DNA of 32,000 nt, from the NCBI RefSeq assembly GCF_000012905.2, contig NC_007493.2:960001-992000 (forward strand), in the 5' to 3' direction. The first letter of the stretch is position 1. Each line of letters opens with the position of its first letter. The translations under genes and the position numbers were made by a program. Source of the DNA: Cereibacter sphaeroides 2.4.1. Its GTDB lineage: Bacteria; Pseudomonadota; Alphaproteobacteria; Rhodobacterales; Rhodobacteraceae. Shown here piece after piece: positions 14,904 to 29,133 of this stretch. The notes under the pieces were generated by a model that had not been told where the DNA came from, did no database searches, and worked only from the letters and a program-made list of their open reading frames with translations.

Positions 14904-14923
14904 TTGATGTTGATGCCCAGAGG

Positions 14924-14945
14924 GGGCCGGTGTTCGCACCGGCCC
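14924..14945. terminator. GC hairpin just after the stop of the 154-aa gene
   Basis: GGGCCGGTG-ttcg-CACCGGCCC forms a perfect 9-bp stem. The T-run (TTTCT) is on the + strand side, so its role for the minus-strand transcript is unclear. Confidence 0.35.
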
Positions 14946-14949
14946 TTTC

Positions 14950-15414: not shown

Positions 15415-15436
15415 GTGATGGTTCCTCGCAAGGGGT

Positions 15437-15466
15437 TTGCACGTCGGGAAAAATCTAACCTTACAT
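15437..15466 (+). promoter_or_regulatory. Sigma70-like promoter candidate pointing into the repeat region
   Basis: TTGCAC-N18-TTACAT. It is divergent from the 154-aa gene start at 15414. Confidence 0.3.
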
Positions 15467-15496
15467 GATTAGACGGTCAAGCGGGATTTTCTGCAG

Positions 15497-15786: not shown

Positions 15787-16095
15787 CTCACCCTCCTGCG
15801 GCTCACCACACAAGATGTTCCGAACTTCTCACGATGACACTAAAAGCCTCGTGCGTCTCCGGCGCTCTCACGGCGTTCCGTTCCGGAGCGCCTGAATGAC
15901 TCGCCAGACTCCACAGGAAGCCCGCTGGTGGGCGCTGATACCCTCCGGGGTGTCGATGCGGCGGCCGGACCTTAGCGGGCCTCTACGGGCTTCCTATTGA
16001 GATTCTTCTGTCCGGTTTAAAATCCCTTGCCGGGGGTTCGCGCGTGTGAGACAAATGTGCATCCGGGGTTCACCGTCTCGGGCTAAGTCAGGAGA

Positions 16096-16125
16096 CCCCG
16101 CGCCTCGTCTCCGGCGTGGGGTTTT
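16096..16125 (+). terminator. Rho-independent terminator-like hairpin on the + strand
   Basis: CCCCGCG...CGTGGGG stem (one G-U pair) followed by TTTT. An alternative GGAGAC/GTCTCC stem also exists. It lies directly below the tape-measure stop codon. Confidence 0.4.
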
Positions 16126-16130
16126 CCATT

Positions 16131-18140
16131 TCAGCGCCTGCCCTGATTAAACATGGCGCCGGGGCGCATCTGCCGGCCGATCTCGTCGCGCACCAGCGCC
16201 CGCATGGAGCCTTCGGTTTCCCGCGCGATCTGCTTTGCAAGATCCGCATTGGCTTCCGAGGTGCCGCCCGTGGCATTCACATTGATCGTCGGGGCAATGG
16301 TGATATTCGGTGCATGAGCCGAAGTTTCTTTCGAGAGTTTCGGTGCGAGCGGGATCTTCGCGTTGTCACTGACAAGCCCGCCAGCGGCATAGCCCTTCAA
16401 ATGCCGGTGCATCCGATCAAGGTTTCCGGCGCCGATTTTAGCGGTTGCTTCCTTACTAAAAACAAACTCGCCGCGATGGACAATCCCGGCCGGTTCAAAT
16501 TTGCCGCCTGCGCCGGTATAGCCGCCCTCAGCGAAGCCGCCGGTCAGGAAGCTGCCGAGGGTGCCGAGGAAGGAACCGGACCCTGCACCGGCCAGCATTC
16601 CTATGAGGCGCTGTTGAAGCGCCATCTCGGCGAGCTGTAGCACGAGCTGCCCGACTGCCTCCTTCGCGCTCATGGCGCCAGACAGCACACCCGTGAAGAC
16701 GCTGGTCAGAGCCTGCGCCCCGCGCTGTCCGGCTGCCTCCACGGCCCGCAGGCGCTCGGCGGCCTGCTCAGCGCTCGTGCCGGCCGTGGCATATGCTCCC
16801 GCGAGCCGGTCGATCTCAGCCGACAGGGCAGGCGTGATCTCTCGGCCCTCGCGCTGCGCGGCGACCAGAAGCTCGGCGCGCTGGCGCGCATATTCGAGCA
16901 TGTCGCTATAGGTTTTGCCCGTGGTCGAGGCGCTGGCGAGCGCCTGCCCCTGCGCTTCGAGGGCGGCGGTCTCGGCGGTGATCGCCTGCACCGCGCGGCC
17001 GTAGTCGTCGGACGTGCGGGCGCCGCCTGCCGTCCGGCCGGGGCTGGTCCCGGTGCCCGTGGCGGGCGGGGTCCAGGTGTCGGCCTTCGGCCGCCACGTC
17101 TGCTCGGTGCGCCGTTCCAGCTCGGCGATGATCTGGTTTTCTTCCTCGTCCAGCTCACGCAGGCGCAGGTTGATGATCGCGCGCCCCCGCTCGCCGTTTC
17201 TCCCGGCGGGCAGGTTGTCCAGTCCGGCGGCCTGCTCGGCCTTCTCGCGCATGATCTCGGTCTGGCGGGCCTGCAAGGTGCGGTCGCGCTGGTTCTGGAA
17301 CTCGCGGAAGCCGTCAATGAAGTCCGCAAGGCTCGCCGCCGCCGAGACGATGGCGGACTTCAGGGCGGTCCCGACCGTGGTCGCGATCAGGTTGAACTGC
17401 CTGTCCACCTCGGCGGCCTTGGCGATCAGTTCGTCGTCCATCACGATACCCAGCGCGTTCGCCTCGGTGATGGTGCGCCGGATGCCCGCTTCGCCCTGCG
17501 CCAGCAACTCGACAAACCGTTCGCCGCCCGCGCCGCCGAACAGCTCGTCGGCAATGCGGATCTGCGCGGCCTTGTCGAGCTGTTCGAGCCGCCCCAGGAT
17601 TTCGAGCATCAGGGCCGAGGGGTCTTTCAGCTTCCGGGCCAGCTCTTCGCCCGTGTAGCCGAGACGCTGGAAGGCTTCGGCCGCGCTGCCCTTGCCGGTG
17701 ACGATGAACTCGTCGGCGCGAAGCGACAGCTCCTTGAAGCCGTCCACGAGGCTGTCAACGCCGATGCGGTTCTGCTCGGCCACGAAGCGCCACTCCTGAA
17801 ACGCCCGCGCCGACAGGCCCGCCCGCTTCGCCTCGTCGCCGATCTGGGCCACGCCCCGCGCGACTTCGTGCGCCCGCTCCGCGATGCCGGTCAGGCCCGC
17901 GCCTGCGATCCCGCCTACAAGGCCGCCCGCGAAGGGCAGGGCCAGCCGCTTGAATGTAGCAGCGATGCCGTCGCCCGCCTTGCCGTAGGTCGCGCTGATC
18001 TTGTCAGCGTTCGCCTTCGCCCGGCGCTCCATGTCGTTCGCGGCCTTCGCCTGCGCGGCGTTGGCGCGCTTCAGGCCCTTTTCGAGCTTATCAATTCGTG
18101 CTTCGATTTCGACAACAAGGCCGGGCAATCCGGTGTCCAT
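16131..18140 (-). CDS. Phage tail tape-measure protein
   Basis: Long coiled, Ala/Gly-rich protein. FQEWRFVAEQNRIGVDSLVDGFKELSLRADEF and the C-terminal GGYTGAGGKFEPAGIVHRGEFVFSKEA are patterns I associate with lambda-family TMPs. I chose the ATG at 18138-18140 with GAAGGA 8 nt upstream; the track starts 2 codons earlier at a TTG. Confidence 0.75.
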   Translation of the reverse strand: MDTGLPGLVVEIEARIDKLEKGLKRANAAQAKAANDMERRAKANADKISATYGKAGDGIAATFKRLALPFAGGLVGGIAGAGLTGIAERAHEVARGVAQIGDEAKRAGLSARAFQEWRFVAEQNRIGVDSLVDGFKELSLRADEFIVTGKGSAAEAFQRLGYTGEELARKLKDPSALMLEILGRLEQLDKAAQIRIADELFGGAGGERFVELLAQGEAGIRRTITEANALGIVMDDELIAKAAEVDRQFNLIATTVGTALKSAIVSAAASLADFIDGFREFQNQRDRTLQARQTEIMREKAEQAAGLDNLPAGRNGERGRAIINLRLRELDEEENQIIAELERRTEQTWRPKADTWTPPATGTGTSPGRTAGGARTSDDYGRAVQAITAETAALEAQGQALASASTTGKTYSDMLEYARQRAELLVAAQREGREITPALSAEIDRLAGAYATAGTSAEQAAERLRAVEAAGQRGAQALTSVFTGVLSGAMSAKEAVGQLVLQLAEMALQQRLIGMLAGAGSGSFLGTLGSFLTGGFAEGGYTGAGGKFEPAGIVHRGEFVFSKEATAKIGAGNLDRMHRHLKGYAAGGLVSDNAKIPLAPKLSKETSAHAPNITIAPTINVNATGGTSEANADLAKQIARETEGSMRALVRDEIGRQMRPGAMFNQGRR

Positions 18141-18152
18141 GTGCAATGTCCT

Positions 18153-19763
18153 TCAGAAAACAAACAGGCCCTCGGCCTCGGGATCGGAGTAAGCCGACTT
18201 GCGGCTGTCGGCGGCGACGGCGCGCGAAACCGCCATCGCAGCGGCAACGGCGCCGTCAATCCGGCTGGTGCGCTGGACCTTGTGCATTCGGATCAGGCCG
18301 CTTTCGCTGCGTGAGGCGCACACGTTCTGAAGATGGTTGCGCAGGACCGGGTGCCCGTCGTGGCGGATCAGGCGACCGTTCACCACGCGCTCAAGATCGC
18401 CAGCGGCAACGCCCATAGTCAGCGGCGCCTGTCGCATCTCCACCACCGGCAGGCCCTCGTCATAGAGGCTCTGCATCATCGGCCGGGCAAGGTGCGGGTC
18501 GAAGGCGACTTCCTGCGCGTCGAAGCGGGCGCATAGCTCGCGGATCTGGTCGGCCACGGCGCTCTGGTCGATGATCGCGCCGGGCGTGGCGATCAGGTGC
18601 CCTTCATCGCGCCATCGCTCGTAAGGCACGCCGTCGCGGTCGGCGCGGACCTTGAGGTCGTCGCCGGGCACCCAGAACCACGGTTTGACACTGATCTGCC
18701 CGTCCGGGTGCTTCCACGCCGCCACCACGGCCGAGAGGTCGCCCGAGATGGACAGGTCAACGCCGATCCAGCAGGGCAGGCCCTCAAGCTCGTCCAGATC
18801 CTCGGCGAAGCGCCGGGCGTCGTAGGTGTCGAAGTCGAAGAGCGGATCGCGGCTGTTCGCCATCCACTCGTTCAAGTTGAACTGCCGGAAGGCGTAGGCA
18901 TCGCTCGGGCGGCCCTCGGCTTCCTTCGCCAGCGTGCGCAGGCCCTCAAGGCTCGGGAAGCCGTGGCGCAGGCCGGGGTTGACCTTGTGCCACGTCGCTT
19001 CGTCGGTCCAGTCGTCGCCTGGCTCGGGCGCGAACAAGATCGGCAAGAAGGCCGGGTTCACGATCTCGCCCCGCGCGACGGCCAAGGCATAGGCATATTG
19101 TTCCGCCGCGACCGTGTCGGCGCCGCGCCCGGCCGTGGTGGCGATCACGGTCAGGCTGTCGGCCACCTTGGCGGTGCCGGACTTCAGGGCTTCCCAGAGG
19201 TCGCGGCCCTTCCATGCGTGCAGCTCGTCAATCAACGTGAAGGCCGGGGTCCGGCCATGCTGCGCGCCACCATCCGACGAGATCGCCGAGAGGGTCACAT
19301 CCTCGGCGCGGAAGACGATCTTCTTTGCCGAGTTGTGCGCGTCATAGATCCGGGTGGCCGCCACGAGGCGCTTGTCGGCGCGGATGATGTTCGCGGCCTC
19401 GCGGAAGCCGATGCCCGCCTGCTCGCGGTCGCAGGCGGCGAAGATCACCTGCCCGGCGGGCACGCGCTCGGGGCCGAGGGTATGGAGAAGGGCCAGGGCG
19501 GCGGCGAGGCTGGTCTTCCGGTTGCCCCTCGGCACCAGCAGGAAGACCGTCTTCACGATCCGGCTGCCGTCCGGGTGCCGGGGTCCGTAGATCGCCCGGA
19601 CGATGCGCTCTTGCCACGGGTAGAGCTGGAAGGCCCGGCCCGGCGCGGTGCTCGCCGGGTGCTTCAGCAGGCGCAGGAACTTCACCGCCCGCTCGCCATA
19701 GCCGAACGGGTCGGGGATCGCGCTGCCGTCATAGATCCACGCCGGATAGCTGCTCTTCGTCAT
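18153..19763 (-). CDS. Terminase large subunit
   Basis: 536 aa. P-loop-like LLVPRGNRKTSLAAA, Walker-B-like FTLIDELHAW and a C-terminal nuclease region (WIGVDLSISGDLSAVV) fit the Terminase_1-type layout. The start overlaps the TerS stop. Confidence 0.85.
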   Translation of the reverse strand: MTKSSYPAWIYDGSAIPDPFGYGERAVKFLRLLKHPASTAPGRAFQLYPWQERIVRAIYGPRHPDGSRIVKTVFLLVPRGNRKTSLAAALALLHTLGPERVPAGQVIFAACDREQAGIGFREAANIIRADKRLVAATRIYDAHNSAKKIVFRAEDVTLSAISSDGGAQHGRTPAFTLIDELHAWKGRDLWEALKSGTAKVADSLTVIATTAGRGADTVAAEQYAYALAVARGEIVNPAFLPILFAPEPGDDWTDEATWHKVNPGLRHGFPSLEGLRTLAKEAEGRPSDAYAFRQFNLNEWMANSRDPLFDFDTYDARRFAEDLDELEGLPCWIGVDLSISGDLSAVVAAWKHPDGQISVKPWFWVPGDDLKVRADRDGVPYERWRDEGHLIATPGAIIDQSAVADQIRELCARFDAQEVAFDPHLARPMMQSLYDEGLPVVEMRQAPLTMGVAAGDLERVVNGRLIRHDGHPVLRNHLQNVCASRSESGLIRMHKVQRTSRIDGAVAAAMAVSRAVAADSRKSAYSDPEAEGLFVF

Positions 19764-20158
19764 CAGGTCACAGCGAGCGGGTTGTCGGCGTCGTCATCCT
19801 CGGCGGCGGTGCTGGCGATCCGCGAGCGCGACACGGGCGACAGGCCATATTCGGCCGCGAGCTGGCGGGCGGTCTGCGCAGCCCGGTTCAAGACGCCGAA
19901 CATCTTTGGGTCAATGACGCCACCGGCCGCCTGCCGCTCGCGCTCGATCTGCCGGACGATGCCCCGCGCGGTGCAGAGGTCTTCGACGCCGCCGAGGTCG
20001 GCGGTCGTGACGATCCGATCTTCCACCAGCCGGGGCAGGACGCGCTTCCACTCGGCCTTGGCCTCGGGCGACAGATGGCTCGGCGCCTTCGGCACCCGCG
20101 CGAGCGGCGCCCGGTCGGCGTTCAGGGTCGGCTTCCGGCCTCGGGTCGCGGTCGTCAT
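19763..20158 (-). CDS. Terminase small subunit, P27 family
   Basis: MTTATRGRKPT...P.HLSPEAKAEWKRVLPRL.......ADLGGVEDLC...RAAQTARQLAAEYGLSPVSRSRI matches the P27-family pattern. Confidence 0.8.
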   Translation of the reverse strand: MTTATRGRKPTLNADRAPLARVPKAPSHLSPEAKAEWKRVLPRLVEDRIVTTADLGGVEDLCTARGIVRQIERERQAAGGVIDPKMFGVLNRAAQTARQLAAEYGLSPVSRSRIASTAAEDDDADNPLAVT

Positions 20159-20469
20159 GCCGCCACCGCCTTCAGCTCAAGACCTCGCCGGCGGCCGATC
20201 TCGGCCACCTCGCGAATGTCGAAGGTCCGGCCGTCGCCCGTCACGATCCGGTCGCCCGTGGTGATGCCCGCCCGCCAGCGGATGCGGAACGTCACATGCG
20301 CGGCCTCGGACTCGCCGAAGCCGGTCGCGCTCTCGCGGTCGGTGCGCTGCACCAGCTCGGCGTGGGCCACGGCCACGGCACCCCAGAGGGTCACAACCTC
20401 GCCGGACGGGTCCACCAGCTCGGTCTTGCGTTGGATCTGGATCAGATGGCGCAGGGCTGCGCTGCGCAT
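20155..20469 (-). CDS. Head closure / head-tail adaptor protein (SPP1 gp16-like)
   Basis: Internal ATG at 20467-20469 (MRSAALRHLIQIQRKTELVDPSGEVVTLW...AHVTFRIRWRAGITTGDRIV..GRTFDIREV), the typical head-closure pattern. An ATGA overlap links it to TerS. Confidence 0.75.
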   Translation of the reverse strand: MRSAALRHLIQIQRKTELVDPSGEVVTLWGAVAVAHAELVQRTDRESATGFGESEAAHVTFRIRWRAGITTGDRIVTGDGRTFDIREVAEIGRRRGLELKAVAA

Positions 20470-20471
20470 TG

Positions 20472-20888
20472 TCAGTCCCTCCACTGAATGACGGCTTCGA
20501 GCTGCACCACGCCATGCGTATAGGCGCGCTCGGGCTGCGGGTCGCGAAGCCAGAGGATCGAAGGGCGCTGCCACTCCACCACGAAGGCGCCGGGGATCAC
20601 AGGCGCGTCGATCAGCGCGCCCATGCAGGCGGTGCCGATCTGCCGGGCGGTGCCCGCGTCTTCCAGCGCCCACACGTCCAAGGTCATGTAGATCCGCGCA
20701 ACGTGCTGGTTGCCCGAAGCCCGGCCGAGATATTGCACCTGATCGGCCTTCAGGATGACGCAGGGCATCCGGTCGGGGCGCACCGGGCCGGTGCGGACGT
20801 GATCCGCAGGCACCAGCGCCAGAACTTCGGGCGTGTCCAGCAGCGCCGCGCGCACCGCCGTCTGAAGGGCCAGGGCGGGATCAAGCAT
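20472..20888 (-). CDS. DUF3168-type tail-completion / neck protein
   Basis: 138 aa. The L..AL...L......LV...V......P....PCVIL pattern is typical of DUF3168 proteins in HK97/GTA-like head-tail modules. Confidence 0.65.
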   Translation of the reverse strand: MLDPALALQTAVRAALLDTPEVLALVPADHVRTGPVRPDRMPCVILKADQVQYLGRASGNQHVARIYMTLDVWALEDAGTARQIGTACMGALIDAPVIPGAFVVEWQRPSILWLRDPQPERAYTHGVVQLEAVIQWRD

Positions 20889-21303
20889 GGCTGCCCGCCT
20901 TTCGGATCGCCTTGCCGATGGCGCGCGACAGGCGGCTAAGTATCCTCGGCCGGGCGATCCGCCACGCCGGACGCGTGAAGGGTTGCGCCTCCATCGTCAC
21001 GGTGCCGAACTCGACAAGGTGCCCGTGGCGCATGGCGGGCGAGCCGACCGTGACCACGGCCTGATTGTCCGGGATGGTGCGCCGCCCGCCGTCGCTGGCA
21101 TAGGCGGGTGTCGTCTGGCCGGGTCCGGTGACGGCGATGCTGTCGCGCAAGGCGCCCGTGTCCACCGGGGCGAGGGCGCGCATCTTCGCGGCCACATCCT
21201 CGGCGGCCTTCACCAGAGCCGGGCGCAGCTCGGCCAGCACGTCGCCGGGGATCTGGTCGAGGCGCGCGGCCAAGCGGCGCGAGCTGTCAGAGGTTGCCGA
21301 CAT
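20881..21303 (-). CDS. HK97 gp10-family neck protein
   Basis: LRPALVKAAEDVAAKMRALAPVDTGALRDSI......HGHLVEFGT..MEAQPF is the HK97 gp10 family pattern. Confidence 0.75.
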   Translation of the reverse strand: MSATSDSSRRLAARLDQIPGDVLAELRPALVKAAEDVAAKMRALAPVDTGALRDSIAVTGPGQTTPAYASDGGRRTIPDNQAVVTVGSPAMRHGHLVEFGTVTMEAQPFTRPAWRIARPRILSRLSRAIGKAIRKAGSHA

Positions 21304-21598
21304 GGCCCGTCACCTGTTCCCGGAAAGGCGCCAGAAGATCGCGAACGCCGAACGGCACGGCCTCGGCAGAGACGCCGAAAGCAACAGCCTCACGCTGTTC
21401 ATAAAGATGCGCCGCCAGCATCAGCGCGGCTTCGACATGGGCAGGACATGCCGAGTTGAAAGCATCGCCGACATGCCCGGCAATCCATGCCTCGGCCACG
21501 GCCAGCTTGTGCGACATAAGATCCGCCTCGGCTATTGCCGTGTCAGGATCAAGGTTCAGTTGCGCCGTCAGCAGCGCGAGGGGAGACTGCGCAGCCAC
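21287..21598 (-). CDS. gp6-like head-tail connector protein
   Basis: 103 aa with a GTG start and GAGGT 7 nt upstream. LLTAQLNLDPDTA..EADL...L..AEAWI......A.......P.....A.LMLAAHLYE.RE is typical of phage gp6-like connectors. Confidence 0.65.
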   Translation of the reverse strand: MAAQSPLALLTAQLNLDPDTAIAEADLMSHKLAVAEAWIAGHVGDAFNSACPAHVEAALMLAAHLYEQREAVAFGVSAEAVPFGVRDLLAPFREQVTGHVGNL

Positions 21599-21612
21599 GG
21601 CGCTACCTCATA

Positions 21613-21625
21613 CGTTATAACATAA
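21613..21625. promoter_or_regulatory. AT-rich GTTAT-repeat motif copy 2 (GTTATAACATAAC)
   Basis: Exact reverse complement of 27315-27327. It lies 15-27 nt upstream of the gp6-like start and contains the 8-bp palindrome GTTATAAC. Confidence 0.35.
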
Positions 21626-21792
21626 CATAGATGTAGCACACTGATTCGGCCCGGAAAAGTTATTTCGGGCCTATCTTGCGCGGACCTCCCCCCGCCGGTC
21701 CCTAGATTAGTGCGAATCTCAGGCCACCGCCCCCGCGTGGGAAACGGCTTGTAGAAGGTGAGGACATAGGGAACTGTGTCGTTTAAGGTGGG

Positions 21793-23265
21793 ATGCTCGA
21801 TGGAGAGGAGCGAATTTTGAGAGTTTCAGAATATTACAAGCTCGGGCGCAACCAAGCTACATTAAAGTTCATAGATGTTGATATTAAAAACGATGCGCGC
21901 CTATTTGTGAATGCACGTGCAATCAGATTGCTGGAGTCGGAGTGGGGGGAGCATTGCGAGTATCTCCTGTCCAATTTTTTCCAAACGATTATTGACTCAA
22001 TTAGGGTCGGCGACGGGACAGCTGCGCTAACAGCCCTGCAAGCACTGCGCGAGCCAAATGAAACTCACTTGGGATTGTCTGCTGGCGAGTCTGACGGAAG
22101 AGGTCTGGGTCCCCAAAAGGCGTATCAAATCTGGAAATCATTGAAGCAAAGTAAGGCAGTGGAAACCGGCCTATTGAGTGATCTAGAGGACACGGTTCTT
22201 CTGGTGGACGGGGTTTCGGTGGATATTCTGTCGGATGTTGTTACAAACATAATCAGAGGCCCACTCATAACCTTTACTCAAGAAACGTGCGAGGAATACG
22301 GCATTCCCATGGAAAAAGGTGTGGCGTCTGGTCCGGTTTGGAACCCGGGCGCGAGATGTTGGGAAGAGGATTTTGTGAGCTTGCCTTTACCTGAAGGGGA
22401 GAAGTTAATACTGGTTCCGAAGTCAATCGTGCGGGTTGATGCGGATTATAAGGTCGGCCAGTATTATCGTCATTACGTATTGGAGTCCATGAAGATCGAT
22501 GAGATCGCTCGCAATAGTGAGCTAGTGTATACGATTAAATCAGGCGCAAGAAAGGGTGAGAGGACTGTCACCAAGACCAGCTTGGAGAAAAAATACGGAA
22601 GTCAACAAAAATCTATCTCAATCGATTACACGAATAAGCGGCCAGATCTTTTGGAGAAATACAAGAGGGATCATTCGGCTCCTACGCCAGCTCTCACACA
22701 TAGGCAAATCGCTGAGGCGCAAGGTTTGCAGCTTCCTGATTGGAAGGCCCTGCTTCAAGCTGTTACCAGTTTGGAGCCGGGAAGGAAGCAAGCATATCTC
22801 TACGAGGACGCCATAACGGATTTACTTTCCGCTCTTTTTCATCCGGTTCTCGTTGACCCGGAGAAGCAATCAGTTCTGCATGGTGGAATAAAAAGGGTCG
22901 ATCTGCGCTTTACCAATTATGCGCGGTCTGGGTTCTTTGAGTGGCTTTCTCGGCATTATTCGTGCTCATACATATTTGTCGAGTGCAAGAACTTTGGGGA
23001 GGAGCTGGGTAATCCAGAGATTGACCAAATCGCAATGCGGTTCTCAAAGGAGAGAGGCCAGTTTGGGATTGTGGTCTGCCGGAATGTCGAGAATGCGGAT
23101 CTTCTAGATCGACGGTGTAAGGCGGCGGCACAAGATGGACACGGGTTCGTTGTGGTCCTGTCAGACTCGGATCTCGGTCAATTGATTGAAGAGTCCAAGG
23201 AGGGCCTGCTTCAGACGTATGAGTTCCCAACGCTTAGAAGAAAGTTCAATCAACTAATTATGTGA
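21793..23265 (+). CDS. Unknown 490-aa protein with C-terminal PD-(D/E)xK restriction-endonuclease-like signature; candidate defence/conflict nuclease
   Basis: It is the only + strand gene in the element. It is visibly AT-rich with A/T-ending codons, against GC-rich flanks. RBS AAGGTGG lies before the ATG at 21793; an alternative is TTG at 21817 after GGAGAGGAG. The C-terminus has YEDAITDLL (helix E338), GIKRVDLRF (D370), YIFVECKNF (E397-x-K399) and then GIVVCRN. The N-terminal ~330 aa are unrecognised. Confidence 0.7.
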   Translation: MLDGEERILRVSEYYKLGRNQATLKFIDVDIKNDARLFVNARAIRLLESEWGEHCEYLLSNFFQTIIDSIRVGDGTAALTALQALREPNETHLGLSAGESDGRGLGPQKAYQIWKSLKQSKAVETGLLSDLEDTVLLVDGVSVDILSDVVTNIIRGPLITFTQETCEEYGIPMEKGVASGPVWNPGARCWEEDFVSLPLPEGEKLILVPKSIVRVDADYKVGQYYRHYVLESMKIDEIARNSELVYTIKSGARKGERTVTKTSLEKKYGSQQKSISIDYTNKRPDLLEKYKRDHSAPTPALTHRQIAEAQGLQLPDWKALLQAVTSLEPGRKQAYLYEDAITDLLSALFHPVLVDPEKQSVLHGGIKRVDLRFTNYARSGFFEWLSRHYSCSYIFVECKNFGEELGNPEIDQIAMRFSKERGQFGIVVCRNVENADLLDRRCKAAAQDGHGFVVVLSDSDLGQLIEESKEGLLQTYEFPTLRRKFNQLIM

Positions 23266-23600
23266 TTGTATCGCTCCTGCATCTGCTTCTGGCGGTCGTG
23301 GCAGGGTTTGCATAGGGCTTGCCAATTGGTGCGATCCCAGAACAGCGTCATGTCGCCCTTGTGCGGGATGACGTGATCGACCACGCCAGCGGGCGCACCG
23401 CAGAAGGCGCAGGTGGGGTGCTGGTGCAGGAATTCGGCGCGGGCCTTGCGCCACTCGTGGGTATAGCCGCGCTCGCGCGACGAGGGGCGCTTCTGGTCGA
23501 AGCGGGCCTTGCGCTCGCGGTCGCGCTGGATCTGGCAGGAACAGCGGGCGCCGTGCGGCACGAGCTGGCCGCAGGTGCAGAGGTGCGGGGGCCGGGGCAT
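23250..23600 (-). CDS. HNH endonuclease (phage packaging-associated type)
   Basis: Zinc-finger cysteines (CTCG...CSC, CAFCG, CKPCH) and the HNH core VDHVIPH....LFWDRTNWQALCKPCH. The 3' end overlaps the + strand ORF by 16 nt. Confidence 0.85.
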   Translation of the reverse strand: MPRPPHLCTCGQLVPHGARCSCQIQRDRERKARFDQKRPSSRERGYTHEWRKARAEFLHQHPTCAFCGAPAGVVDHVIPHKGDMTLFWDRTNWQALCKPCHDRQKQMQERYNHIIS

Positions 23601-23602
23601 GG

Positions 23603-24199
23603 TCAGCCCGCCAGAGCGGCAAGGGCGCGCAGGCCCTCGCGGTCAAAGTCGGGGTCGAGACCTTCCGCTAGGTTCCTCTCGCGCCGGGCGGTGTCGCCGG
23701 GGTCGGCTTCGTCGGCGGTGCCGTGCAGCGCCTTGAGCTGGGCAATCCGACCGTCGAAGGCCAGGATAATTTCCGCCGGAGTCGCATTCAGAGTCTCGGC
23801 CGGGGTCCAGCCCAGCCAGCCGGTGCCGATCTTGTAAAGCTCGGTCAGCGCGTCGACCCACGGCAGCGGCTTCGCCTTCGGGGTGGGCTTGCTGGACTCG
23901 TCAGGCGGCAGCAGCAGCCCTTCGCAGAGGGCGGCAACGGGTGCCTGCACCGCGCGCAGAAAGGGCGCCAGTGGGACGTTCCGGGCGCTGGCAAGGAAGC
24001 TCTCGGCCCGGTGGGGATCGGTCGCGGCGGTGCGGATGATCGCGTGCAGCGTCTGGGTGTCGGCCTCGTCCAGCTTCTCGAAGAGCCGGGCAAAGCCGTC
24101 ATGCAGGCGCTCAAGGATGAGCGCCGCCCGCAGAGACGGGCGCAGGCGCAGGGTGTGTTCCCTATGCGTCAGCGTGATCTCTTCGGGCGCGAGAGGCAT
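23603..24199 (-). CDS. Tail-assembly-chaperone-like protein (GTA g10-like N-half fused to g10.1-like C-half)
   Basis: The N-half ITLTHREHTLRLRPSLRAALILERL...DTQTLHAII resembles the Phage_TAC_11 pattern. The C-half WLGWTPAETLNATPAEIILAFDG resembles the short RcGTA-type chaperone extension. This is a family call from memory only. Confidence 0.5.
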   Translation of the reverse strand: MPLAPEEITLTHREHTLRLRPSLRAALILERLHDGFARLFEKLDEADTQTLHAIIRTAATDPHRAESFLASARNVPLAPFLRAVQAPVAALCEGLLLPPDESSKPTPKAKPLPWVDALTELYKIGTGWLGWTPAETLNATPAEIILAFDGRIAQLKALHGTADEADPGDTARRERNLAEGLDPDFDREGLRALAALAG

Positions 24200-25734
24200 C
24201 AGGCCGCGACCTTCAGCTTCACGAAGCGGTCGGGGTGCGTCAGGTCGGCACCCACACGCTTGCGGGCGTGGAAGCGGACCTGCCCCTTGGTCGCGAGGCT
24301 GAACGGGTCGCGCATGATCGCGAGGCCCACGCGATCCACGATGCGGTAGCCGGACAGATCGCCGAACAGGATCGGGGTGGCGCCCGCCGTCATGTTCGGC
24401 ATATCCGGCGCTTCGACCACGGGGCGGCCGAGAAGCGTGGTCGGGGCCTTCTCCGAGATGCTGTCCAGGAGAAGCGGCTCGCCCATGCCGTTGAAGTAGG
24501 TGCGCAGCTTGGCCAGCGTGGTGCGGTTCATCACCCAGACAGCATTCTGTGCATAGACGGTAGGGATCGCGTGATAGGCTTCGATCAGCGATGCAACGGT
24601 GATCGTGCCCGCACCGCCGCTCAGGGTCGCGATGCCCGCCGCCGCCATGATACCCTTCGGCTTGCCCACACCGTCGCCGTTGACGAAGGCCGCGCTCTCG
24701 GCGCGCCCGAAGCTCTCGGCGAAGTCGGCCATCAGCTCGCCTTCGAGATTGTAGGCGTTGTCTTCCAGAAGTGCGTTCGAGATGTCGGTGAAGGTCGCCA
24801 GCTCGTGCGGGGTCAGCGTGACCTGATCGAAGCTCGGTTCCGATCCGGTGCGGTCGCCGACTTCCGAGACCCAGGTCGCCGAGGTGCCGGTGACGCGCTT
24901 GGGATAGGTGATCTCGGGCGCGCTGATCTGGACGACGCGGGCATACTTGCGGATCGGGCTGAACTCGATCAGGTTCTTGAACAGCTCGTCGCCGAACTCC
25001 TTCGGCGCGAGGTAGCCGCCGTTCGCGGCGGTCGAGACGGTCAGCGACTTGGTGTCAGCGGGGTCCATCCGCTCCACGCCGCGCCGGACATAGCCGCCGA
25101 AGGCCTTCGCTTCGGCGCTCGGGGCCGGGCCGGTCGTCGTGACGCCGGGGCGGTTGGCCTTTGCTTCGAGCTGGTCGAGGCGCTGCTTCAGCGCGTCGAA
25201 CGCCTTGGTGTCGATCTCCGGCGCGTTGGCCGGGGTGGTCTGGTCTTCGTTCTCCACGGGGGTCTTTCCTTCGGTGCATGGTTCTGCCGTGTCATCTGCG
25301 GCCTTGATGGAATGGATCTGCGCGCCCGGATGACACGGGACGGCGACAACGGAGACTTCGAGAAGCCTCAGCTTCGAGATGGAGCGGCCACGGGCGCGGG
25401 GCTTGGCGGCCTCGGTCTCGAAGCCGATGGAGAGGCCCGAGACGGCGCCTGCGCGGATCATGGCGCGGACCTCGCGGGCGCGTTCCACGTCCTGCACGAG
25501 AAGGCGGCCCTTCACGGTCAGGCCCTCGGGCGTCTCGGCGATCTGGTCCCAGACGCCGATCACCTGCGTCTGATCATGCGCGAACAGCATCGGCAACTCG
25601 GCCGGGCCGGTGAAGGCGCCCTTCTCGATCACGTCGCCCACGCGGTCGGGGGTTCCGAAGGGCCAGGCAAGGCCGGTGATCTCGCCGGTCTCTTCGACGG
25701 TCAGCGCCGCCTTGATCTCGATACGGTCGCTCAT
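24199..25734 (-). CDS. Fused HK97-family prohead protease and HK97-family major capsid protein (511 aa)
   Basis: ATG at 25732-25734 (MSDRIEIKA). The protease part has LFAHDQTQVIGVW...GLSIGF. After a linker (AEPCTEGKTPVENEDQTTPANAPE plus the coiled DALKQRLDQLEAKANR) comes the MCP part, GGYLAPKEFGDELFKNLIEFSPIRKYARVV...ATWVSE...LATFTDISNALLED...VNGDGVGKPKGI. It is one uninterrupted frame. Confidence 0.8.
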   Translation of the reverse strand: MSDRIEIKAALTVEETGEITGLAWPFGTPDRVGDVIEKGAFTGPAELPMLFAHDQTQVIGVWDQIAETPEGLTVKGRLLVQDVERAREVRAMIRAGAVSGLSIGFETEAAKPRARGRSISKLRLLEVSVVAVPCHPGAQIHSIKAADDTAEPCTEGKTPVENEDQTTPANAPEIDTKAFDALKQRLDQLEAKANRPGVTTTGPAPSAEAKAFGGYVRRGVERMDPADTKSLTVSTAANGGYLAPKEFGDELFKNLIEFSPIRKYARVVQISAPEITYPKRVTGTSATWVSEVGDRTGSEPSFDQVTLTPHELATFTDISNALLEDNAYNLEGELMADFAESFGRAESAAFVNGDGVGKPKGIMAAAGIATLSGGAGTITVASLIEAYHAIPTVYAQNAVWVMNRTTLAKLRTYFNGMGEPLLLDSISEKAPTTLLGRPVVEAPDMPNMTAGATPILFGDLSGYRIVDRVGLAIMRDPFSLATKGQVRFHARKRVGADLTHPDRFVKLKVAA

Positions 25735-26051
25735 GCCGCCGTCTCCGCGCCGTTCCAACGCGTTTCGAGAATGTCGAGGGCGAGCGGATAGACCTCGCCC
25801 ATCGGGCGGTTGCGGGCGTAGGTATCGACCAGCCGGGCGGCCTCTTGCGGGGTCGCACCGCCGCCGATCAGGCCGAGGCGGATCACCTCGGGCACGTCCT
25901 GCCCCCGGAAGGCGCCCGCGACGGTGCGCAAGTAGATGGCGCCGATCCCGGTTTCGGTCAGGGCTTCCAGCTCGGCGCACATGGCGTCGGTCAGGGCGAA
26001 AGTGCGTTCGCGGTCGCCGAAGAAGGCGACGTGCTTGATGGCGTCGATCAT
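25731..26051 (-). CDS. Small protein (106 aa), second TAC_11-like / GTA g10-like protein between portal and protease
   Basis: ATG at 26049-26051. VAFFGDRERTFALTDAMCAELEALTETGIGAIYLR...DVPEVIRLGLIGGG resembles the GTA g10 pattern. It has ATGA overlaps with both neighbours. Confidence 0.45.
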   Translation of the reverse strand: MIDAIKHVAFFGDRERTFALTDAMCAELEALTETGIGAIYLRTVAGAFRGQDVPEVIRLGLIGGGATPQEAARLVDTYARNRPMGEVYPLALDILETRWNGAETAA

Positions 26052-27241
26052 GCGGATTCCTCGTCGGGCAAAGGCGAAACGGTTTCGCTTTTGCCGCCGG
26101 TCGTGATGTGGGGGTTTTCGAGCGTGTCGCCATCCGGGTGCGCCGGAAGGTTCAGGCCCGCGCGGACCTCGTTCGCGGTCATCGCGCTCATGGCGCGATA
26201 CTGCCCATAGGCGGTTGCGCGGGCGGCGTGGCTCGTGGTCAGCAGGTCGTCGGTGACAAACTCGGCCGTCAGCTCGCGGCGCTCGTCGGGGGTCAGCAGA
26301 CAGCGGGCATAGGCCCATTCCCATGCGCGCAGCCACGGGCGCAGCGTGAATTGCAGGAATTGCCGGTTCTGCTCTTCGAGGTTGCTCCACGTTCCGCGCG
26401 ACAGCTCGCCTAGCATCGTGACCGGAATCCTGAATGCGCGGGCAATCTCGCGGATCTGTTCAAGCCGATTCTCGGCAAACTGGCTGTCGGCGAGGGTCGC
26501 GGACAGGGCCTGATAGTCCATGCCTTCGTCAAGGATCGCCGTGCCGCCGGAGTTGCGCCCGGAGTGCGTGGTGAACCACGAGGCCGCGAGCTTCCGCTTC
26601 GCGTCCACGTCGAGGATCTTCGGGCTTTTGATGATGCCGGACGGGCGCCCGCCGTTGCGGAAGAGGCTGCCGATATGGTCCTCGAAGGCAATGGCGAGCG
26701 CGATGGCCTCGCGGCCCAGGCTGATCGGCGAGCCGCCGAAGGCGCGGACATGCAGCACGTCCGCGAAGCCGTAGCTCGCGGGGCCAGTGTTGGTCGCGAC
26801 GATGTAGAGGGGCGAGCCGTCCGGCGCGGCGTCGAGGCGCACGGCGGCCGGGTCCAGCCGGTGCAGCTCCAGCGGGCGGCCGTCGCTCGCGCGCACGACG
26901 AGGGCGAAGCCGCCATGATCGTTCAGAAGGGCGTCGGCCGTGAGCTGGGCGCGCAGCTCGGCGGCCGAGGTCCACGGGTTCGCCTCGTCATGGATCAGGC
27001 GATAGGCCGGATGATCGCGCCGCGTCAGCTTCCCGGCGTCGAAGATCTTCACCGGCAGCGCGCCGACCGTCTCGGCGATCAGGCCCACGGCGCAGGCCAC
27101 GGCCGGAACGCGCAAGGCCGCGCCCGTGGTGATGAAGGCGCCGGTCACGGTCGGCCGGGCGCCGAAGATCTCGAACGCCTCGGCTGAGGTCAGCGTGACC
27201 GCCGCCTTCTGCTCGGCCTTCGGCTTCCGACTGAAAAACAT
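26048..27241 (-). CDS. Phage portal protein, HK97 family
   Basis: 397 aa. AL.VPAV.ACV.LIAETVG.LP.K.F......R..HP.Y.L....NPW.S and ILDEGMDYQ are typical of HK97-type portals. Confidence 0.85.
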   Translation of the reverse strand: MFFSRKPKAEQKAAVTLTSAEAFEIFGARPTVTGAFITTGAALRVPAVACAVGLIAETVGALPVKIFDAGKLTRRDHPAYRLIHDEANPWTSAAELRAQLTADALLNDHGGFALVVRASDGRPLELHRLDPAAVRLDAAPDGSPLYIVATNTGPASYGFADVLHVRAFGGSPISLGREAIALAIAFEDHIGSLFRNGGRPSGIIKSPKILDVDAKRKLAASWFTTHSGRNSGGTAILDEGMDYQALSATLADSQFAENRLEQIREIARAFRIPVTMLGELSRGTWSNLEEQNRQFLQFTLRPWLRAWEWAYARCLLTPDERRELTAEFVTDDLLTTSHAARATAYGQYRAMSAMTANEVRAGLNLPAHPDGDTLENPHITTGGKSETVSPLPDEESA

Positions 27242-27314
27242 GAGACGCGGTGCATTCCATCAAATTTATCTTGACAGAAGAATCTCACACCGCGAGTCGG
27301 GGATCAAGCAAATT

Positions 27315-27327
27315 GTTATGTTATAAC
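27315..27327. promoter_or_regulatory. AT-rich GTTAT-repeat motif copy 3 (GTTATGTTATAAC)
   Basis: It overlaps the integrase stop codon and lies 74-86 nt upstream of the portal start. It is the reverse complement of 21613-21625. Confidence 0.35.
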
Positions 27328-29133
27328 ATTAGCGAGGTGGTCCAAGTTCAGGCCGGGATACTGAATAGCTTCGATCAGCTTCACCCGTTGCTCAAGCATC
27401 CCCTGAGGCATGATCCCGTAGCGCCCGGTCATGCTGCCTTCGGTGTGGCCGAGGATGAAGCCGAACTCATTATCTAGGTAGCCAGCCCGGCGCAGCGCGT
27501 CGGCAGCACCGTGACGGAACGAGTAGAGGGACAATCCGCGACCTGACTTCAAACCGATGCGCGCGAGATACTTCCCGAACTCGCGGGAAAACTCGCTCAT
27601 CATCTGCCCGCGCTCGTTCCTCTTGGCGCCGGGGAAAAGTCGCTTGTCGCCAGCTTCAACGCGCTGCGAATGATAAGCGAGAAAGCCCAGGCGGATCAGC
27701 TCGGAGTGAACCGGGATCACGCGCATTGATCCAGCCGTCTTGACCTGTTTTCCTTCCTCGTGTGTCTCGCCCTCGGTCGTAATGTGAAAGATCCAGCGGC
27801 CGTGTTCCTGTCGAAGGTCGCTGGTCGCAAGTTGCGCAATCTCACCGGGGCGGGCGCCGGAATAGAGCATGATCAGCGGCACCCAGTAGCGATGATCGCG
27901 GATCAGGACCGGGCCGGGCTTCGAAATGTAGCGCCATGCTGCCTCGCTTTCGCACCCTGCGAACAGAGGTGAGCGGAAGAGGGTGTTCATCTGGTCGCTT
28001 GTGAAGGGCAGGGTCTTCGAGCCGCGTTCCTTTGGCAGCGCCATGCCCGAACAGGGATTGCTCGCGATGTAGCCGTTTGCCTCGGCCCACGAGCAGAACG
28101 CCGAGAGACTGGACAGGTAGCGGTTGACGGTGCGGTCTGACAGGACCGGCCGCTTCGCCTGCTCATTCGCTTCAACAATCTGCCGGATTGTCATTCCGCG
28201 AAACTCGGCGACCTCGGTTGCGCGCAGGGGATACTTGATCAGAAGCGCCTTCCACTCGCGGACGTGCTTCTTCGTGAGCTTGGACACGGGAAACGAGGGA
28301 CCGACCGTCTCCATGAAAACGCCGATGTCGCGACATGCTTCCTCGATCCTGCCCTTGGACACATTCCGGGGGTTCTCGGTTCGGAAGGCTTCGACGGCCT
28401 CGGCGATGCTCTCGCCCGGCGGCGCAACTTCCATCTCGGCGCGCTTCTCTGCGGTAGGGGGCTTCACCAGCGGGTCGCGTGGCTGGCCGGTGTAGTCGCC
28501 CCGGTCCCGCTCAAGCGTGCGTTCGAGGGCTTCGGCCTCGGCCCGCATCATGCGCCTCGCTAAGCTGATCCAGTCAGGAGTTCCACGTTCCACCAGAAGC
28601 CGGTTGCGGTTCAGGTAGTCGTCAACCTCGTGAGAGATCAATGCCGTCTCGCCCTTCACCAAATGCTCGCGCAGGTCGGCCAGCTTCGCCTTGCGAGTAT
28701 CCGAGGCGAGGGCAGGGGCCTGTTGCTTCACTTGTAGCTCAAGAGTCGCGTCGAGGATCGCCAGCGGCTCGGCGCTGGTAATCTCTCCACGGTCGGCGCG
28801 CCGGATCACGTCAGCCTCGGCGGCTGCAATCTCCGCCTCGCCCGGCAGCGTTGCCCGCTCGGCCTCGTCGCGGGTGAGGGCGGCCGTGTAGTGGTCCCAG
28901 ACTGCATGTTCGCGGTCAGCAGCGACAAGCGACCGTCTCGCGCGCAGGTCGTCAAACTCGCGCTGCCATGCGTCAAGCTGGGGGTAGAGGCGCCGCTTCG
29001 CCTCGGTTTCATCCTTCGTTCCGAGGGCCTTCACCAGCTCCTTCTTGCCCACGATGGCGATCAGGTCGAGGGGAACGCGGGTCCGGGCGTAGTAGGCGGC
29101 ACCCCGCCGCAAAAGATGACTAAGACGTGCCAT
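27316..29133 (-). CDS. Tyrosine-type site-specific integrase (long N-terminal extension)
   Basis: Catalytic-domain landmarks are LYSGARPGEIAQL (Arg), LYSFRHGAADAL (H-x-x-R), ILGH and MTGRYG (Tyr). The N-terminus LLRRGAAYYARTRVPLDL is typical of the DUF6538-type integrase N-domain. Confidence 0.9.
   Translation of the reverse strand: MARLSHLLRRGAAYYARTRVPLDLIAIVGKKELVKALGTKDETEAKRRLYPQLDAWQREFDDLRARRSLVAADREHAVWDHYTAALTRDEAERATLPGEAEIAAAEADVIRRADRGEITSAEPLAILDATLELQVKQQAPALASDTRKAKLADLREHLVKGETALISHEVDDYLNRNRLLVERGTPDWISLARRMMRAEAEALERTLERDRGDYTGQPRDPLVKPPTAEKRAEMEVAPPGESIAEAVEAFRTENPRNVSKGRIEEACRDIGVFMETVGPSFPVSKLTKKHVREWKALLIKYPLRATEVAEFRGMTIRQIVEANEQAKRPVLSDRTVNRYLSSLSAFCSWAEANGYIASNPCSGMALPKERGSKTLPFTSDQMNTLFRSPLFAGCESEAAWRYISKPGPVLIRDHRYWVPLIMLYSGARPGEIAQLATSDLRQEHGRWIFHITTEGETHEEGKQVKTAGSMRVIPVHSELIRLGFLAYHSQRVEAGDKRLFPGAKRNERGQMMSEFSREFGKYLARIGLKSGRGLSLYSFRHGAADALRRAGYLDNEFGFILGHTEGSMTGRYGIMPQGMLEQRVKLIEAIQYPGLNLDHLANVIT

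Follow-up and report, generated by a model that had tools for sequence, protein, structure and literature searches.

An element integrated in the genome of Cereibacter sphaeroides 2.4.1 is probably an intact, cf-PICI-like, capsid-forming phage satellite that completes its virions with helper-phage parts. It lies within the window, the whole stretch of 32,000 nucleotides that was analysed (contig NC_007493.2, positions 960,001 to 992,000). An exact repeat search placed the element at 12830-29270 (~16.4 kb), flanked by 18-bp direct repeats of TCCCTCCACTCCGACCAT (Table 1). The sequence-only reading that preceded this analysis had drawn its limits at 16131-27241, which is too small, as both int and the 3.3-kb module that follows the tape measure protein (TMP) gene fall outside it. 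The putative arm-type site CATGTGTTACAGTTTTG has a second copy beside int at 29168-29184 and a shorter copy at 29157-29167.

Table 1. Features of the element and its integration target; coordinates are positions in the whole window.
Feature	Coordinates	Strand	Evidence or remark
tRNA-Pro (UGG), integration target	12770-12846	+	ARAGORN; Rfam tRNA 68 bits
attL, first 18-bp copy of TCCCTCCACTCCGACCAT, overlaps tRNA 3' end	12830-12847	.	identical to 29253-29270
CATGTGTTACAGTTTTG, candidate integrase arm-type site	12897-12913	.	exact repeats; putative function
264-aa accessory protein, possible ADP-ribosyltransferase-fold cargo	13031-13825	-	phrog_4776 E 4e-46, PHROG without assigned function
210-aa highly charged protein	14243-14875	-	analogous charged protein in equivalent position in relatives
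154-aa conserved protein, candidate DNA-binding regulator	14950-15414	-	homologues directly 3' of TMP in many relatives
Sigma-70-like promoter TTGACC-17-TAGATT, directly upstream of 154-aa gene	15452-15480	-	consensus scan only
Seven TGTCAGGGGACA copies, both orientations, within 128-bp tandem duplication	15497-15778	.	candidate operator or iteron array
TMP, 669-671 aa	16131-18146	-	phrog_10574, full length, E 3e-149
TerL	18153-19763	-	TerL_ATPase + TerL_nuclease
TerS	19763-20158	-	Terminase_4, E 2e-18
Head-closure (head completion) protein	20155-20469	-	Phage_HCP, E 3e-19
Tail terminator / Tail_completion_gp17-like (DUF3168)	20472-20888	-	PF11367 E 3e-23; phrog_176 tail terminator
HK97 gp10-like neck / tail-completion protein	20881-21303	-	PF04883 E 4e-16; TIGR01725
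gp6-like head-tail adaptor (Ad1)	21287-21598	-	phrog_40 E 5e-14; PF05135 slightly under cutoff
Conserved 88-nt non-coding block, core ACCGGCG...CAAGA	21650-21737	-	~50 nt upstream of adaptor gene
AT-rich cargo gene, 490 aa	21793-23265	+	PDC-M36A (PADLOC candidate defence protein) E 2e-37; phrog_27295 E 6e-125
HNH endonuclease (packaging accessory)	23250-23600	-	PF01844, E 5e-6
198-aa GT-type tail assembly chaperone, C-terminal Phage_TAC_6	23603-24199	-	phrog_7493; family-level PF09550
Prohead protease-MCP fusion, 511 aa	24199-25734	-	Peptidase_S78 + Phage_capsid; TIGR01554 E 8e-104
106-aa tail assembly chaperone (Phage_TAC_11, GTA-gp10 family)	25731-26051	-	PF11836, E 2e-27
Portal	26048-27241	-	PF04860, E 2e-91
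Tyrosine integrase, N-terminal DUF6538	27316-29133	-	PF20172 + PF00589 (Phage_integrase); phrog_1
attR, second 18-bp copy of TCCCTCCACTCCGACCAT, beyond int	29253-29270	.	exact repeat

Gene content of the element

Annotation with Pfam, PHROGs and NCBIfam reproduced every gene call, and the HMM searches returned the same minus-strand gene identities and order, from int to TMP, as had first been read from the letters. The genes form two tightly coupled operons, portal-chaperone-protease/MCP-chaperone-HNH and adaptor-gp10-like-terminator-head closure-TerS-TerL-TMP. ATGA overlaps join portal to the 106-aa chaperone, this chaperone to protease-MCP, and the head-closure gene (104 aa in the public record) to TerS; TGATG overlaps join protease-MCP to the 198-aa chaperone and TerS to TerL. 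The intact, tightly coupled ORFs described earlier are thus indeed present. Among GenBank phages, identity to TerL never exceeds 34%, and the best match to the MCP is at most 37% identical.

The C-terminal residues 457-671 of TMP match residues 639-853 of lambda gpH (E 2e-19), and the TMP of Sinorhizobium phage phi2LM21 is 37% identical over 548 aa, with a 210-aa segment at 60%. Among homologues of the 198-aa protein, PF09550 (Phage_TAC_6) was matched in 16 out of 16 (best E 5e-7) and PF11836 in 2 of the 16; at family level, these profile matches identify it as a tail chaperone, not a tube protein. We agree with the earlier remark that TMP and chaperones sit awkwardly in the cf-PICI class, and this is the interesting part of the finding.

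HMM searches gave no family match in any ORF to a tail tube, distal tail, baseplate, holin, endolysin, primase, helicase or Rep, and the absence of tail tube, baseplate, lysis and replication genes claimed beforehand was upheld by HMM and PHROGs annotation. The PICI hallmarks (alpA or divergent regulators beside int, and a primase-replicase) were likewise absent from the element in profile searches. We count the absence of these modules against the satellite reading, since it leaves replication of the element without explanation, and likewise the retention of TMP and chaperones in an element that has dropped the tube gene.

A family with a fixed gene order

TerL relatives were collected from 176 genome stretches and 348 IMG/VR stretches, with the best 80 of each kept. 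The exact order of the element recurs in 70 of 136 related loci and, with a gpM-like gene added, in another 16; these 86 loci come from Rhodobacterales and Hyphomicrobiales genomes, covering several genera and two orders, and from IMG/VR. What had looked like a scrambled arrangement is therefore a gene order that is fixed in a large family. The order published for proteobacterial cf-PICIs also has morphogenetic genes first and hnh-terS-terL last, so that terminase genes following the neck genes are expected for a cf-PICI lifestyle.

Family members were found in Rhodobacterales, Hyphomicrobiales, Caulobacterales and Azospirillum. The elements measure 14-18 kb and are integrated at tRNA genes for Pro, Val, Met, Ser, Thr, Gln, Leu, Glu and Cys; because these sites differ, descent of the relatives by vertical inheritance from a single old insertion is excluded. 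Among virome contigs of the family, none with terminal repeats was found. Across 10-13 independent pairs, dN/dS was below 1 in nearly every comparison (about 0.1-0.4), the exception being one head-closure pair at 1.04. With ratios of 0.12-0.39 for TMP and 0.03-0.49 for the chaperones (0.12-0.49 for the 198-aa chaperone), the sequence comparisons indicate purifying selection on all genes, TMP and chaperones included.

The relatives are graded in their tail-related genes: some have none, most have the set found in the window, some add a lambda gpM-like gene (located after TMP and matching tip protein M of lambda), and some additionally encode a major tail protein. The lack of tube and tip genes is hence borne out for the element itself and does not extend to the whole family, in which many members carry one or the other of these proteins; the missing tube gene is a feature of the element's clade. 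In one relative (L037), a tRNA gene ends the element directly after TMP and a 130-aa ORF, leaving no room for tip genes.

This gradation bears on whether the tube and other parts come from an unrelated helper phage or, in a multipartite or nested system, from another family member (for instance of type B) or a fixed partner locus. A major tail protein of phrog_158 is present in relatives of both type B and type A'; one Roseovarius contig carries a type A element (L029) together with a tube-encoding type B element (L058), and Martelella genomes hold several family members. However, a tail-tip set or lysis genes were found in no family member examined, so that a true phage or GTA would still be required, and we consider a multipartite system unlikely.

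Comparison with known systems

With the cf-PICIs EcCIEDL933 and KpCIDSM30104, the element shares a size of 10-18 kb, an integrase with att sites, its own MCP, protease, portal, adaptor, connector, HNH, TerS and TerL, and the lack of lysis genes and of a complete tail module. In both, morphogenetic genes lead and terminase genes end the order, terminase and capsid genes are remote from deposited phages, and defence cargo is present. In its probable mode of operation it is similar to the cf-PICIs known from enterobacteria and Firmicutes. Protease and capsid genes are fused in some Firmicutes cf-PICIs. The element differs in having no alpA/Stl-type regulator or primase-replicase beside int, its regulatory module being at the far end; in the cargo slot and four neck genes between HNH and TerS; and in its additional TMP, two tail chaperones, tail terminator and tail-completion protein. 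Tail genes are forbidden for cfPICI in SatelliteFinder. Classical cf-PICIs take finished tails, whereas the element is proposed to supply tail parts. Its hosts are Alphaproteobacteria, of which we found no mention in the cf-PICI literature searched.

EPIPs, the TMP-encoding satellites of Mycolicibacterium (Mycobacteriaceae), resemble the element in being small, in encoding capsid-related proteins, a small terminase, head-tail adaptors and TMP, and in lacking a tail tube or holin (preprint PMC12822802). The tails of their particles differ in length from those of the helper (PMC12822802), which is the behaviour predicted for the element. Unlike the element, EPIPs are ~11 kb in size, have actinobacterial hosts and a serine integrase and were isolated as free particles, and TerL, portal and chaperones are not reported for them (PMC12822802).

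Phage phi2LM21 has a homologous TMP with a gpH-type C-terminus, in a 46.6 kb genome with the canonical order TerL-portal-protease-MCP-neck-tube-chaperones-TMP-tip-fibres-lysis; the element has one third of this content, in a different order.

RcGTA-like GTAs share related HK97-type capsid, neck and chaperone families with the element, as well as a size of ~15 kb and alphaproteobacterial hosts. Their genes, among them those for tube, a short TMP and the tail tip, follow the canonical order, and they have no integrase, whereas the element has int, att, TerS, HNH and a long lambda-type TMP, is without tube and tip, and belongs to a family with varying tRNA sites. A GTA of the host could conceivably be the parasitised partner, lending its tube (g9), tip (g12-g15) and lysis functions. 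The four alphaproteobacterial groups in which the family occurs commonly have RcGTA-like clusters, one chaperone falls into the GTA-gp10 Pfam family, and the closest solved structure to the protease-MCP is the RcGTA capsid protein (E 6e-42). Yet the RcGTA-like cluster is only distantly similar (portal 28%, MCP 34%, neck via family HMMs only), the C-terminus of TMP is lambda-type, as is the gpM-like gene that relatives carry, no similarity of TMP to the GTA tape measure was detected, and the family's tube genes have no sequence match to the RcGTA tube. We therefore give a GTA satellite little credence.

Cargo slot and conserved non-coding block

The AT-rich insert seen in the initial reading is real, with a GC content of 49% against 66% in the rest of the element and a single plus-strand gene within. 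It is the occupant of a family-wide variable cargo slot: the gap between HNH and adaptor genes ranges from 239 to 3424 nt across 91 relatives. Defence genes occupy the slot in relatives, namely RT-TIR, GmrSD with HEPN, and a methylase alongside a BglII-type endonuclease.

The core of the non-coding block next to the slot occurs in 83 of 98 type A loci, invariably just upstream of gp6 or gp10. One arm of an apparent hairpin in the block varies without compensation, which suggests a site in the DNA more than a structured RNA; it is a candidate cos site or late-operon control site.

Cargo genes that resemble defence systems would also fit an integrative defence island, which has lost spread by its own particles and keeps structural genes to hinder phages, for instance through TMP or chaperone decoys or capsid sequestration. 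With TMP and chaperones, it could disrupt the assembly of helper tails. Purifying selection on the complete capsid, packaging and neck set argues against this explanation, and spread to many tRNA sites and genera, taken with selection, is most simply accounted for by particle-mediated transfer; we regard a defence island as improbable.

Highly improbable is a decaying or rearranged prophage remnant, its tail, lysis and replication genes deleted and its order a product of rearrangement: the absence of essential phage functions and the AT-rich insertion mid-element would suit it, but the order is identical across different genera and orders, att repeats and integrase are intact, integration sites are independent among relatives, no gene is disrupted and coupling is tight throughout, dN/dS lies well below 1 for tail-related genes too, and the supposed insertion fills a slot that varies across the whole family. 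Where the sequence-only reading had left satellite and remnant side by side, the gene order, att and int, tRNA sites and dN/dS support the capsid-forming satellite and reject the remnant.

The module downstream of TMP

The earlier view that the element has no recognisable CI/Cro-type repressor fails to account for the 154-aa protein and its neighbouring repeat array. An AlphaFold2 model of this protein (pLDDT 83) has two N-terminal helices and two beta3-alpha repeats, with no significant fold match in the PDB, and it is not a tail-tube fold; a weak sequence match to CopG/RHH was obtained. In the array, the 12-mer TGTCAGGGGACA has 7 matches where 0.08 are expected, and 7 of 16 scored relatives have different 11-mers of their own, in at least three copies, at the equivalent position. 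We propose the 154-aa protein as a candidate regulator of the element.

The 210-aa protein gave no family match in Pfam, PHROGs, NCBIfam and other profile searches, and only weak similarity to same-position proteins in three relatives (L003, L004 and L085). The 264-aa protein is not conserved among related elements, with only 4 homologues found; it has a conserved motif R..S-x-T..E-x-E, and Foldseek matches to ART toxins were weak and non-significant.

A proposed satellite life cycle

In the proposed cycle, a helper phage with a lambda-type tail would infect or be induced, relieving repression of the element, which would excise and build small capsids sized for ~16 kb. Its own HNH-TerS-TerL would package its DNA specifically, and the conserved block that precedes the adaptor gene may serve as cos. 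Virions would be completed with helper parts: the element would contribute TMP, both chaperones, the tail terminator and the tail-completion protein, and borrow tube and tip. A complex of TMP and chaperones would seed tail assembly on the tail-tip complex of the helper, the satellite would dictate how far the helper tube protein is polymerised (~100 nm for 670 aa), and the element's terminator, which would match its own neck, would cap the tail. Lysis, and probably replication too, would be borrowed from the helper. Alternatively, TMP could work against the helper, as a decoy that spoils its tails.

For both helper and ancestor, the likely type is a lambda/HK97-like temperate siphophage of Alphaproteobacteria. 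By supplying TMP, chaperones, terminator and completion protein, an element with this putative satellite lifestyle would enter tail assembly earlier than classical cf-PICIs do. It belongs to an apparently undescribed, large alphaproteobacterial family, which most likely parasitises helper phages.

Boundaries and integration site

An exact 18-bp direct repeat, TCCCTCCACTCCGACCAT, stands at both ends of the element, so that the island integrated at tRNA-Pro spans about 16.4 kb, tyrosine integrase included. The extent of 16131-27241 given by the sequence-only reading is therefore too short. A second short repeat recurs near both ends and, judged by sequence, may be an integrase arm-binding site. 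An Rfam scan returned the tRNA as its sole match.

Features of the element and of related loci (L-numbers: loci from genome contigs or IMG/VR)
Feature	Locus	Coordinates	Strand	Remarks
tRNA-Pro	window	12770-12846		integration site
attL, TCCCTCCACTCCGACCAT	window	12830-12847		18-bp direct repeat; 3' end of tRNA-Pro
Candidate arm-binding site, (CA)TGTGTTACAG(TTTTG)	window	12897-12913		once, near attL
Candidate arm-binding site, same repeat	window	29157-29184		twice, between int and attR
264-aa protein	window	13031-13825	-	probable cargo
Highly charged protein	window	14243-14875	-	after 154-aa gene
Highly charged protein	L003	12996-13523		after 154-aa gene
Highly charged protein	L004	13043-13606		after 154-aa gene
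Highly charged protein	L085	13529-14110		after 154-aa gene
TGTCAGGGGACA array	window	15497-15778		seven copies, both orientations
88-nt non-coding block	window	21650-21737		~50 nt upstream of adaptor gene; invariant ACCGGCG and CAAGA
AT-rich cargo gene, 490 aa	window	21793-23265	+	49% GC; PADLOC PDC-M36A homologue, phrog_27295
attR, second copy of TCCCTCCACTCCGACCAT	window	29253-29270		just past integrase gene
RT-TIR protein, cargo	L002	12399-13898		
GmrSD_N + HEPN protein, cargo	L087	4376-6319		
MT-A70 methylase + BglII-type endonuclease, cargo	L088	15418-16842		

Gene content, order and coupling

Scans of the element's ORFs with Pfam, PHROGs, NCBIfam and PADLOC reproduced the gene list and order first read from the sequence. 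Along the minus strand, the portal gene directly follows a DUF6538-tyrosine integrase, with no regulator module between them; next come a 106-aa Phage_TAC_11 (GTA-gp10 family) chaperone, a protease-MCP fusion, a 198-aa protein and HNH. Beyond the AT-rich insert lie a gp6-like adaptor, an HK97 gp10-like protein, a gp17/DUF3168 terminator, a head-closure protein, TerS, TerL and the tape measure protein (TMP; 670 aa), which matches phrog_10574 over the full length (E 3e-149). Cereibacter supplies the closest named homologues. The tight coupling noted earlier also held: the junctions are ATGA/TGATG overlaps or gaps of 2-6 nt and delimit two operon blocks, portal-to-HNH and adaptor-to-TMP.

The tail set is partial, comprising TMP, two chaperones, terminator and completion protein. 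The claimed absence of tail tube, baseplate, lysis and replication genes was borne out, as no ORF matched a tail tube, distal tail, baseplate, holin, endolysin, primase, helicase or Rep in the four collections; AlpA was likewise without a match in Pfam, PHROGs or NCBIfam. The only unassigned conserved ORF within the att boundaries is that of the 154-aa protein.

The ORFs of unknown function were considered as a hidden tail tube. The family of the 198-aa protein shares the motif GWLGWTPE..WNATP.EI, and PF09550 (Phage_TAC_6) matched all 16 of its 16 aligned members, TAC_11 also matching two of these. By these profiles the protein is a GT-type tail chaperone of the TAC_6 type, not a tube protein, and it was ruled out. 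The 154-aa protein was set aside on a confident AlphaFold2 model (pLDDT 83) with two N-terminal helices and two beta3-alpha repeats, which had no significant PDB match and no tube-like fold. The 264-aa protein was rejected as a rare cargo gene resembling ADP-ribosyltransferase (ART) toxins weakly.

A family of related elements

TMP homologues are abundant in Rhodobacteraceae, and four public loci (Phaeobacter, Celeribacter, Cereibacter, Paracoccus) have a gene-for-gene identical order. A TerL-profile scan detected 176 TerL-related stretches in genome contigs and 348 in IMG/VR; the best 80 of each were kept, and these came from Rhodobacterales, Hyphomicrobiales, Azospirillum and others. Synteny with these homologous elements was confirmed: among the 136 kept loci holding both portal and TerL, the window order is exact in 70, and 16 more add one gene after TMP.

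Related elements measure 14-18 kb and occupy tRNA genes for nine different amino acids, the integrase changing to match. Across 10-13 independent close pairs, dN/dS ranged over 0.05-0.15 (TerL), 0.12-0.39 (TMP), 0.03-0.49 (both chaperones) and 0.09-0.58 (terminator). Comparative sequence evidence thus identifies the family as living mobile elements, not decayed prophages. In loci with the window gene order (type A), TMP falls into length classes of ~665-685, 780-800, 830-850 and 890-920 aa, which would give tails of correspondingly distinct length.

No sign of encapsidation emerged: terminal repeats, sought as marks of circular or terminally redundant genomes, were absent from the 80 IMG/VR contigs. 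Logan contigs of ~17.4 kb hold just the element, and assembly breaks at att sites could account for them. Within the incomplete part of the literature covered, we found no account of satellites in Rhodobacterales or Rhizobiales, or of this family.

A graded series of tail genes

A family tube protein is encoded in the Xanthobacter locus L037 (phrog_158, E 1e-20), together with two chaperone ORFs and a DnaB-like helicase. Used as a tblastn query, it was found in about 27 relatives and was absent from the window and its large clade. Its gene lies between HNH and adaptor in the tube-encoding loci (type B); in three type A-like loci it separates MCP from the 198-aa chaperone. In 16-18 type A relatives, a lambda gpM-like tip protein (PF05939; PDB 8iyk_M, E 2e-9) is encoded just after TMP. 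In about 15 loci (type C), tail-related genes are absent save for an adaptor in some; their content is that of a classical capsid-forming phage-inducible chromosomal island (cf-PICI).

The C-terminus of the window TMP aligns with lambda gpH residues 639-853 (E 2e-19). L037 terminates at a tRNA gene directly after TMP and a 130-aa ORF, and large tip or fibre genes follow TMP in none of the loci examined. Together with the gpM-like genes, these sequence matches indicate that what is missing belongs to a lambda-type tail, namely the tube, the gpM/L/K/I/J-like tip and the fibres.

Putative regulator, cargo and a conserved non-coding site

The 154-aa gene follows TMP after a gap of 716 nt, and homologues occupy the equivalent place in many relatives. 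The gap holds a sigma-70-like candidate promoter and, inside a 128-bp tandem duplication, the TGTCAGGGGACA array (0.08 copies expected). Different repeated 11-mers were present in the equivalent gap of seven of the 16 relatives scored, in keeping with a DNA-binding protein paired with a site of its own. We hypothesise that the 154-aa protein may be a regulator of the element or an origin-binding protein.

Neither the 210-aa nor the 264-aa protein is conserved across the family, and no homologues of the former were found. The gene after that of the putative regulator encodes a highly charged protein of 175-210 aa in the window and in three relatives; these proteins end in a short hydrophobic tail (...NLALF, ...YGAF, ...FGAF, ...YGMF) and share little other similarity. 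The 264-aa protein, which has four homologues only in 5.8 billion proteins, carries a conserved VWRG / SWT / E-x-E (R/S-x-T/E-x-E) motif and gave weak Foldseek matches to ART toxins (Rhs TreX, cholera toxin); because of this motif and likeness it is probably cargo.

The AT-rich cargo gene and the HNH gene are convergent, with a 16-nt overlap at the 3' end of HNH. The product of the cargo gene is a homologue of PDC-M36A, a candidate defence protein in PADLOC, and a homologue 34% identical to it lies after TerL in the Martelella type C element L045. In relatives, the HNH-to-adaptor gap ranges from 239 to 3424 nt, and cargo (RT-TIR, GmrSD + HEPN or a restriction-modification pair) sits there or in a second slot after TMP. 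From the gene content (see table), the family apparently serves as a carrier of defence genes.

Across genera, 83 of 98 type A loci keep the core of the 88-nt block upstream of the adaptor. An RNA structure was rejected: one arm varies without compensation, and the block is for this reason taken as a DNA site. It may be a cos site or a late-operon control site.

Comparison with phages and known satellites

TMP, MCP and TerL searches of 50,697 GenBank phage records yielded no characterised phage with the element's order, the best matches reaching 34% identity for TerL and 37% for MCP. The order is thus not the standard one of any characterised phage family in this set. An 18-kb record considered as a same-order phage, MW091529, proved to be an ordinary RcGTA-like cluster. 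The TMP is 37% identical over 548 aa to that of Sinorhizobium phage phi2LM21; unlike the element, this phage is 46.6 kb long and has a canonical lambda-like order with tube, tip, fibre and lysis genes. Compared with an autonomous HK97/lambda-like temperate siphophage, the element is without a major tail protein, tip/baseplate and lysis cassette; no replicase was found in it, and it carries a putative regulator accompanied by an operator array.

The cf-PICI literature defines these islands as 10-18 kb in size, with an integrase and a capsid and packaging module of their own, and as lacking a lytic or a complete tail module. The element is a 16.4-kb integrated island with tyrosine integrase and att repeats, has matches for all eight capsid/packaging genes (Pfam, PHROGs or NCBIfam), and is without lytic genes or a complete tail module. 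At least three independent cf-PICI groups are described, with a packaging module related at 50-90% within the proteobacterial group (EcCIEDL933), so relatedness to EcCIEDL933 is not strictly required.

Proteobacterial cf-PICIs place morphogenetic genes first and hnh-terS-terL last (cf-PICI literature). The description of the gene order as scrambled is therefore misleading: a terminase after the neck genes is to be expected of a satellite lifestyle. The element likewise has capsid genes first and terS-terL late, but its hnh lies upstream of the cargo slot and four neck genes, and TMP follows terL. It has neither alpA or divergent regulators next to int nor a primase-replicase; the only candidates for regulation are the 154-aa protein and the adjacent repeat array, at the end opposite int. 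The partial tail set is one that the cfPICI model of SatelliteFinder would forbid. For a satellite TMP, the nearest functional precedent is the EPIP, a TMP-encoding Mycolicibacterium satellite whose tails differ in length from those of its helper (preprint, PMC12822802, 2025). By the described features the element is cf-PICI-like, but it departs from cf-PICIs in the regulation/replication module and in its extra tail-assembly genes.

Proposed mechanism and alternatives

Most of the capsid-forming satellites known come from enterobacteria and Firmicutes, and such satellites are thought to take finished tails only. Between the satellite and the remnant left open by the sequence-only reading, the satellite is the best supported interpretation, and we regard it as fairly probable. 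A helper siphophage would trigger derepression and excision, whereupon the element would make small capsids and package its own DNA via HNH-TerS-TerL. The TMP-chaperone complex would assemble on helper tip complexes and recruit helper tube subunits, with the satellite TMP setting tail length; satellite terminator and completion proteins would cap the tails and join them to the neck of the satellite, and the helper would supply lysis.

A broader proposal, which we advance tentatively and rate a little below even, is that capsid-forming satellites of Alphaproteobacteria, forming a large and undescribed family, hijack tail assembly, not finished tails. Private tails of satellite length would then bear a terminator fitting only the satellite neck. 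The reduction series, from no tail-related genes, through TMP, chaperones and terminator, to the addition of gpM and then of a tube protein, would be a record of step-by-step evolution linking phage and satellite.

Family members of differing tail-gene content share genomes: one Roseovarius contig holds L029 and L058, and one Martelella MAG holds L041, L045 and L049. Such co-residence may point to nested dependence, and it favours a reading in which the element relies on another family member, although we consider this unlikely.

A satellite of a gene transfer agent (GTA) is less likely still. RcGTA-like GTAs lack integrase and att sites and are inherited vertically at a fixed chromosomal locus, whereas the element has an integrase and att repeats, and its relatives sit at nine tRNA species. 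The RcGTA-like cluster has the canonical head-to-tail order with tube, short TMP and tail-tip genes (g9, g11-g15); the element has a different order and no tube or tip. A GTA was rejected as close relative or helper because the similarity is only distant, and since the tail markers are also lambda-type, support for the GTA reading is generic. That the element is a defence island without further transfer is improbable to a similar degree. A prophage remnant is contradicted by the common fixed order, the varied tRNA sites and the low dN/dS, and is very improbable.

Significance

With hundreds of members in Rhodobacterales and Hyphomicrobiales, orders that include marine roseobacters and rhizobia, the family would bring Alphaproteobacteria within the range of the satellite lifestyle. 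The rules now used for detection would miss it because they forbid tail genes, and satellites with a tape measure gene are exceptions only now coming to be reported (2025 preprint, PMC12822802). With its graded natural variants, the family lends itself to testing what share of a tail a satellite has to build itself. Given their variable defence cargo, these elements may also bear on phage resistance and on gene flow among their host bacteria.
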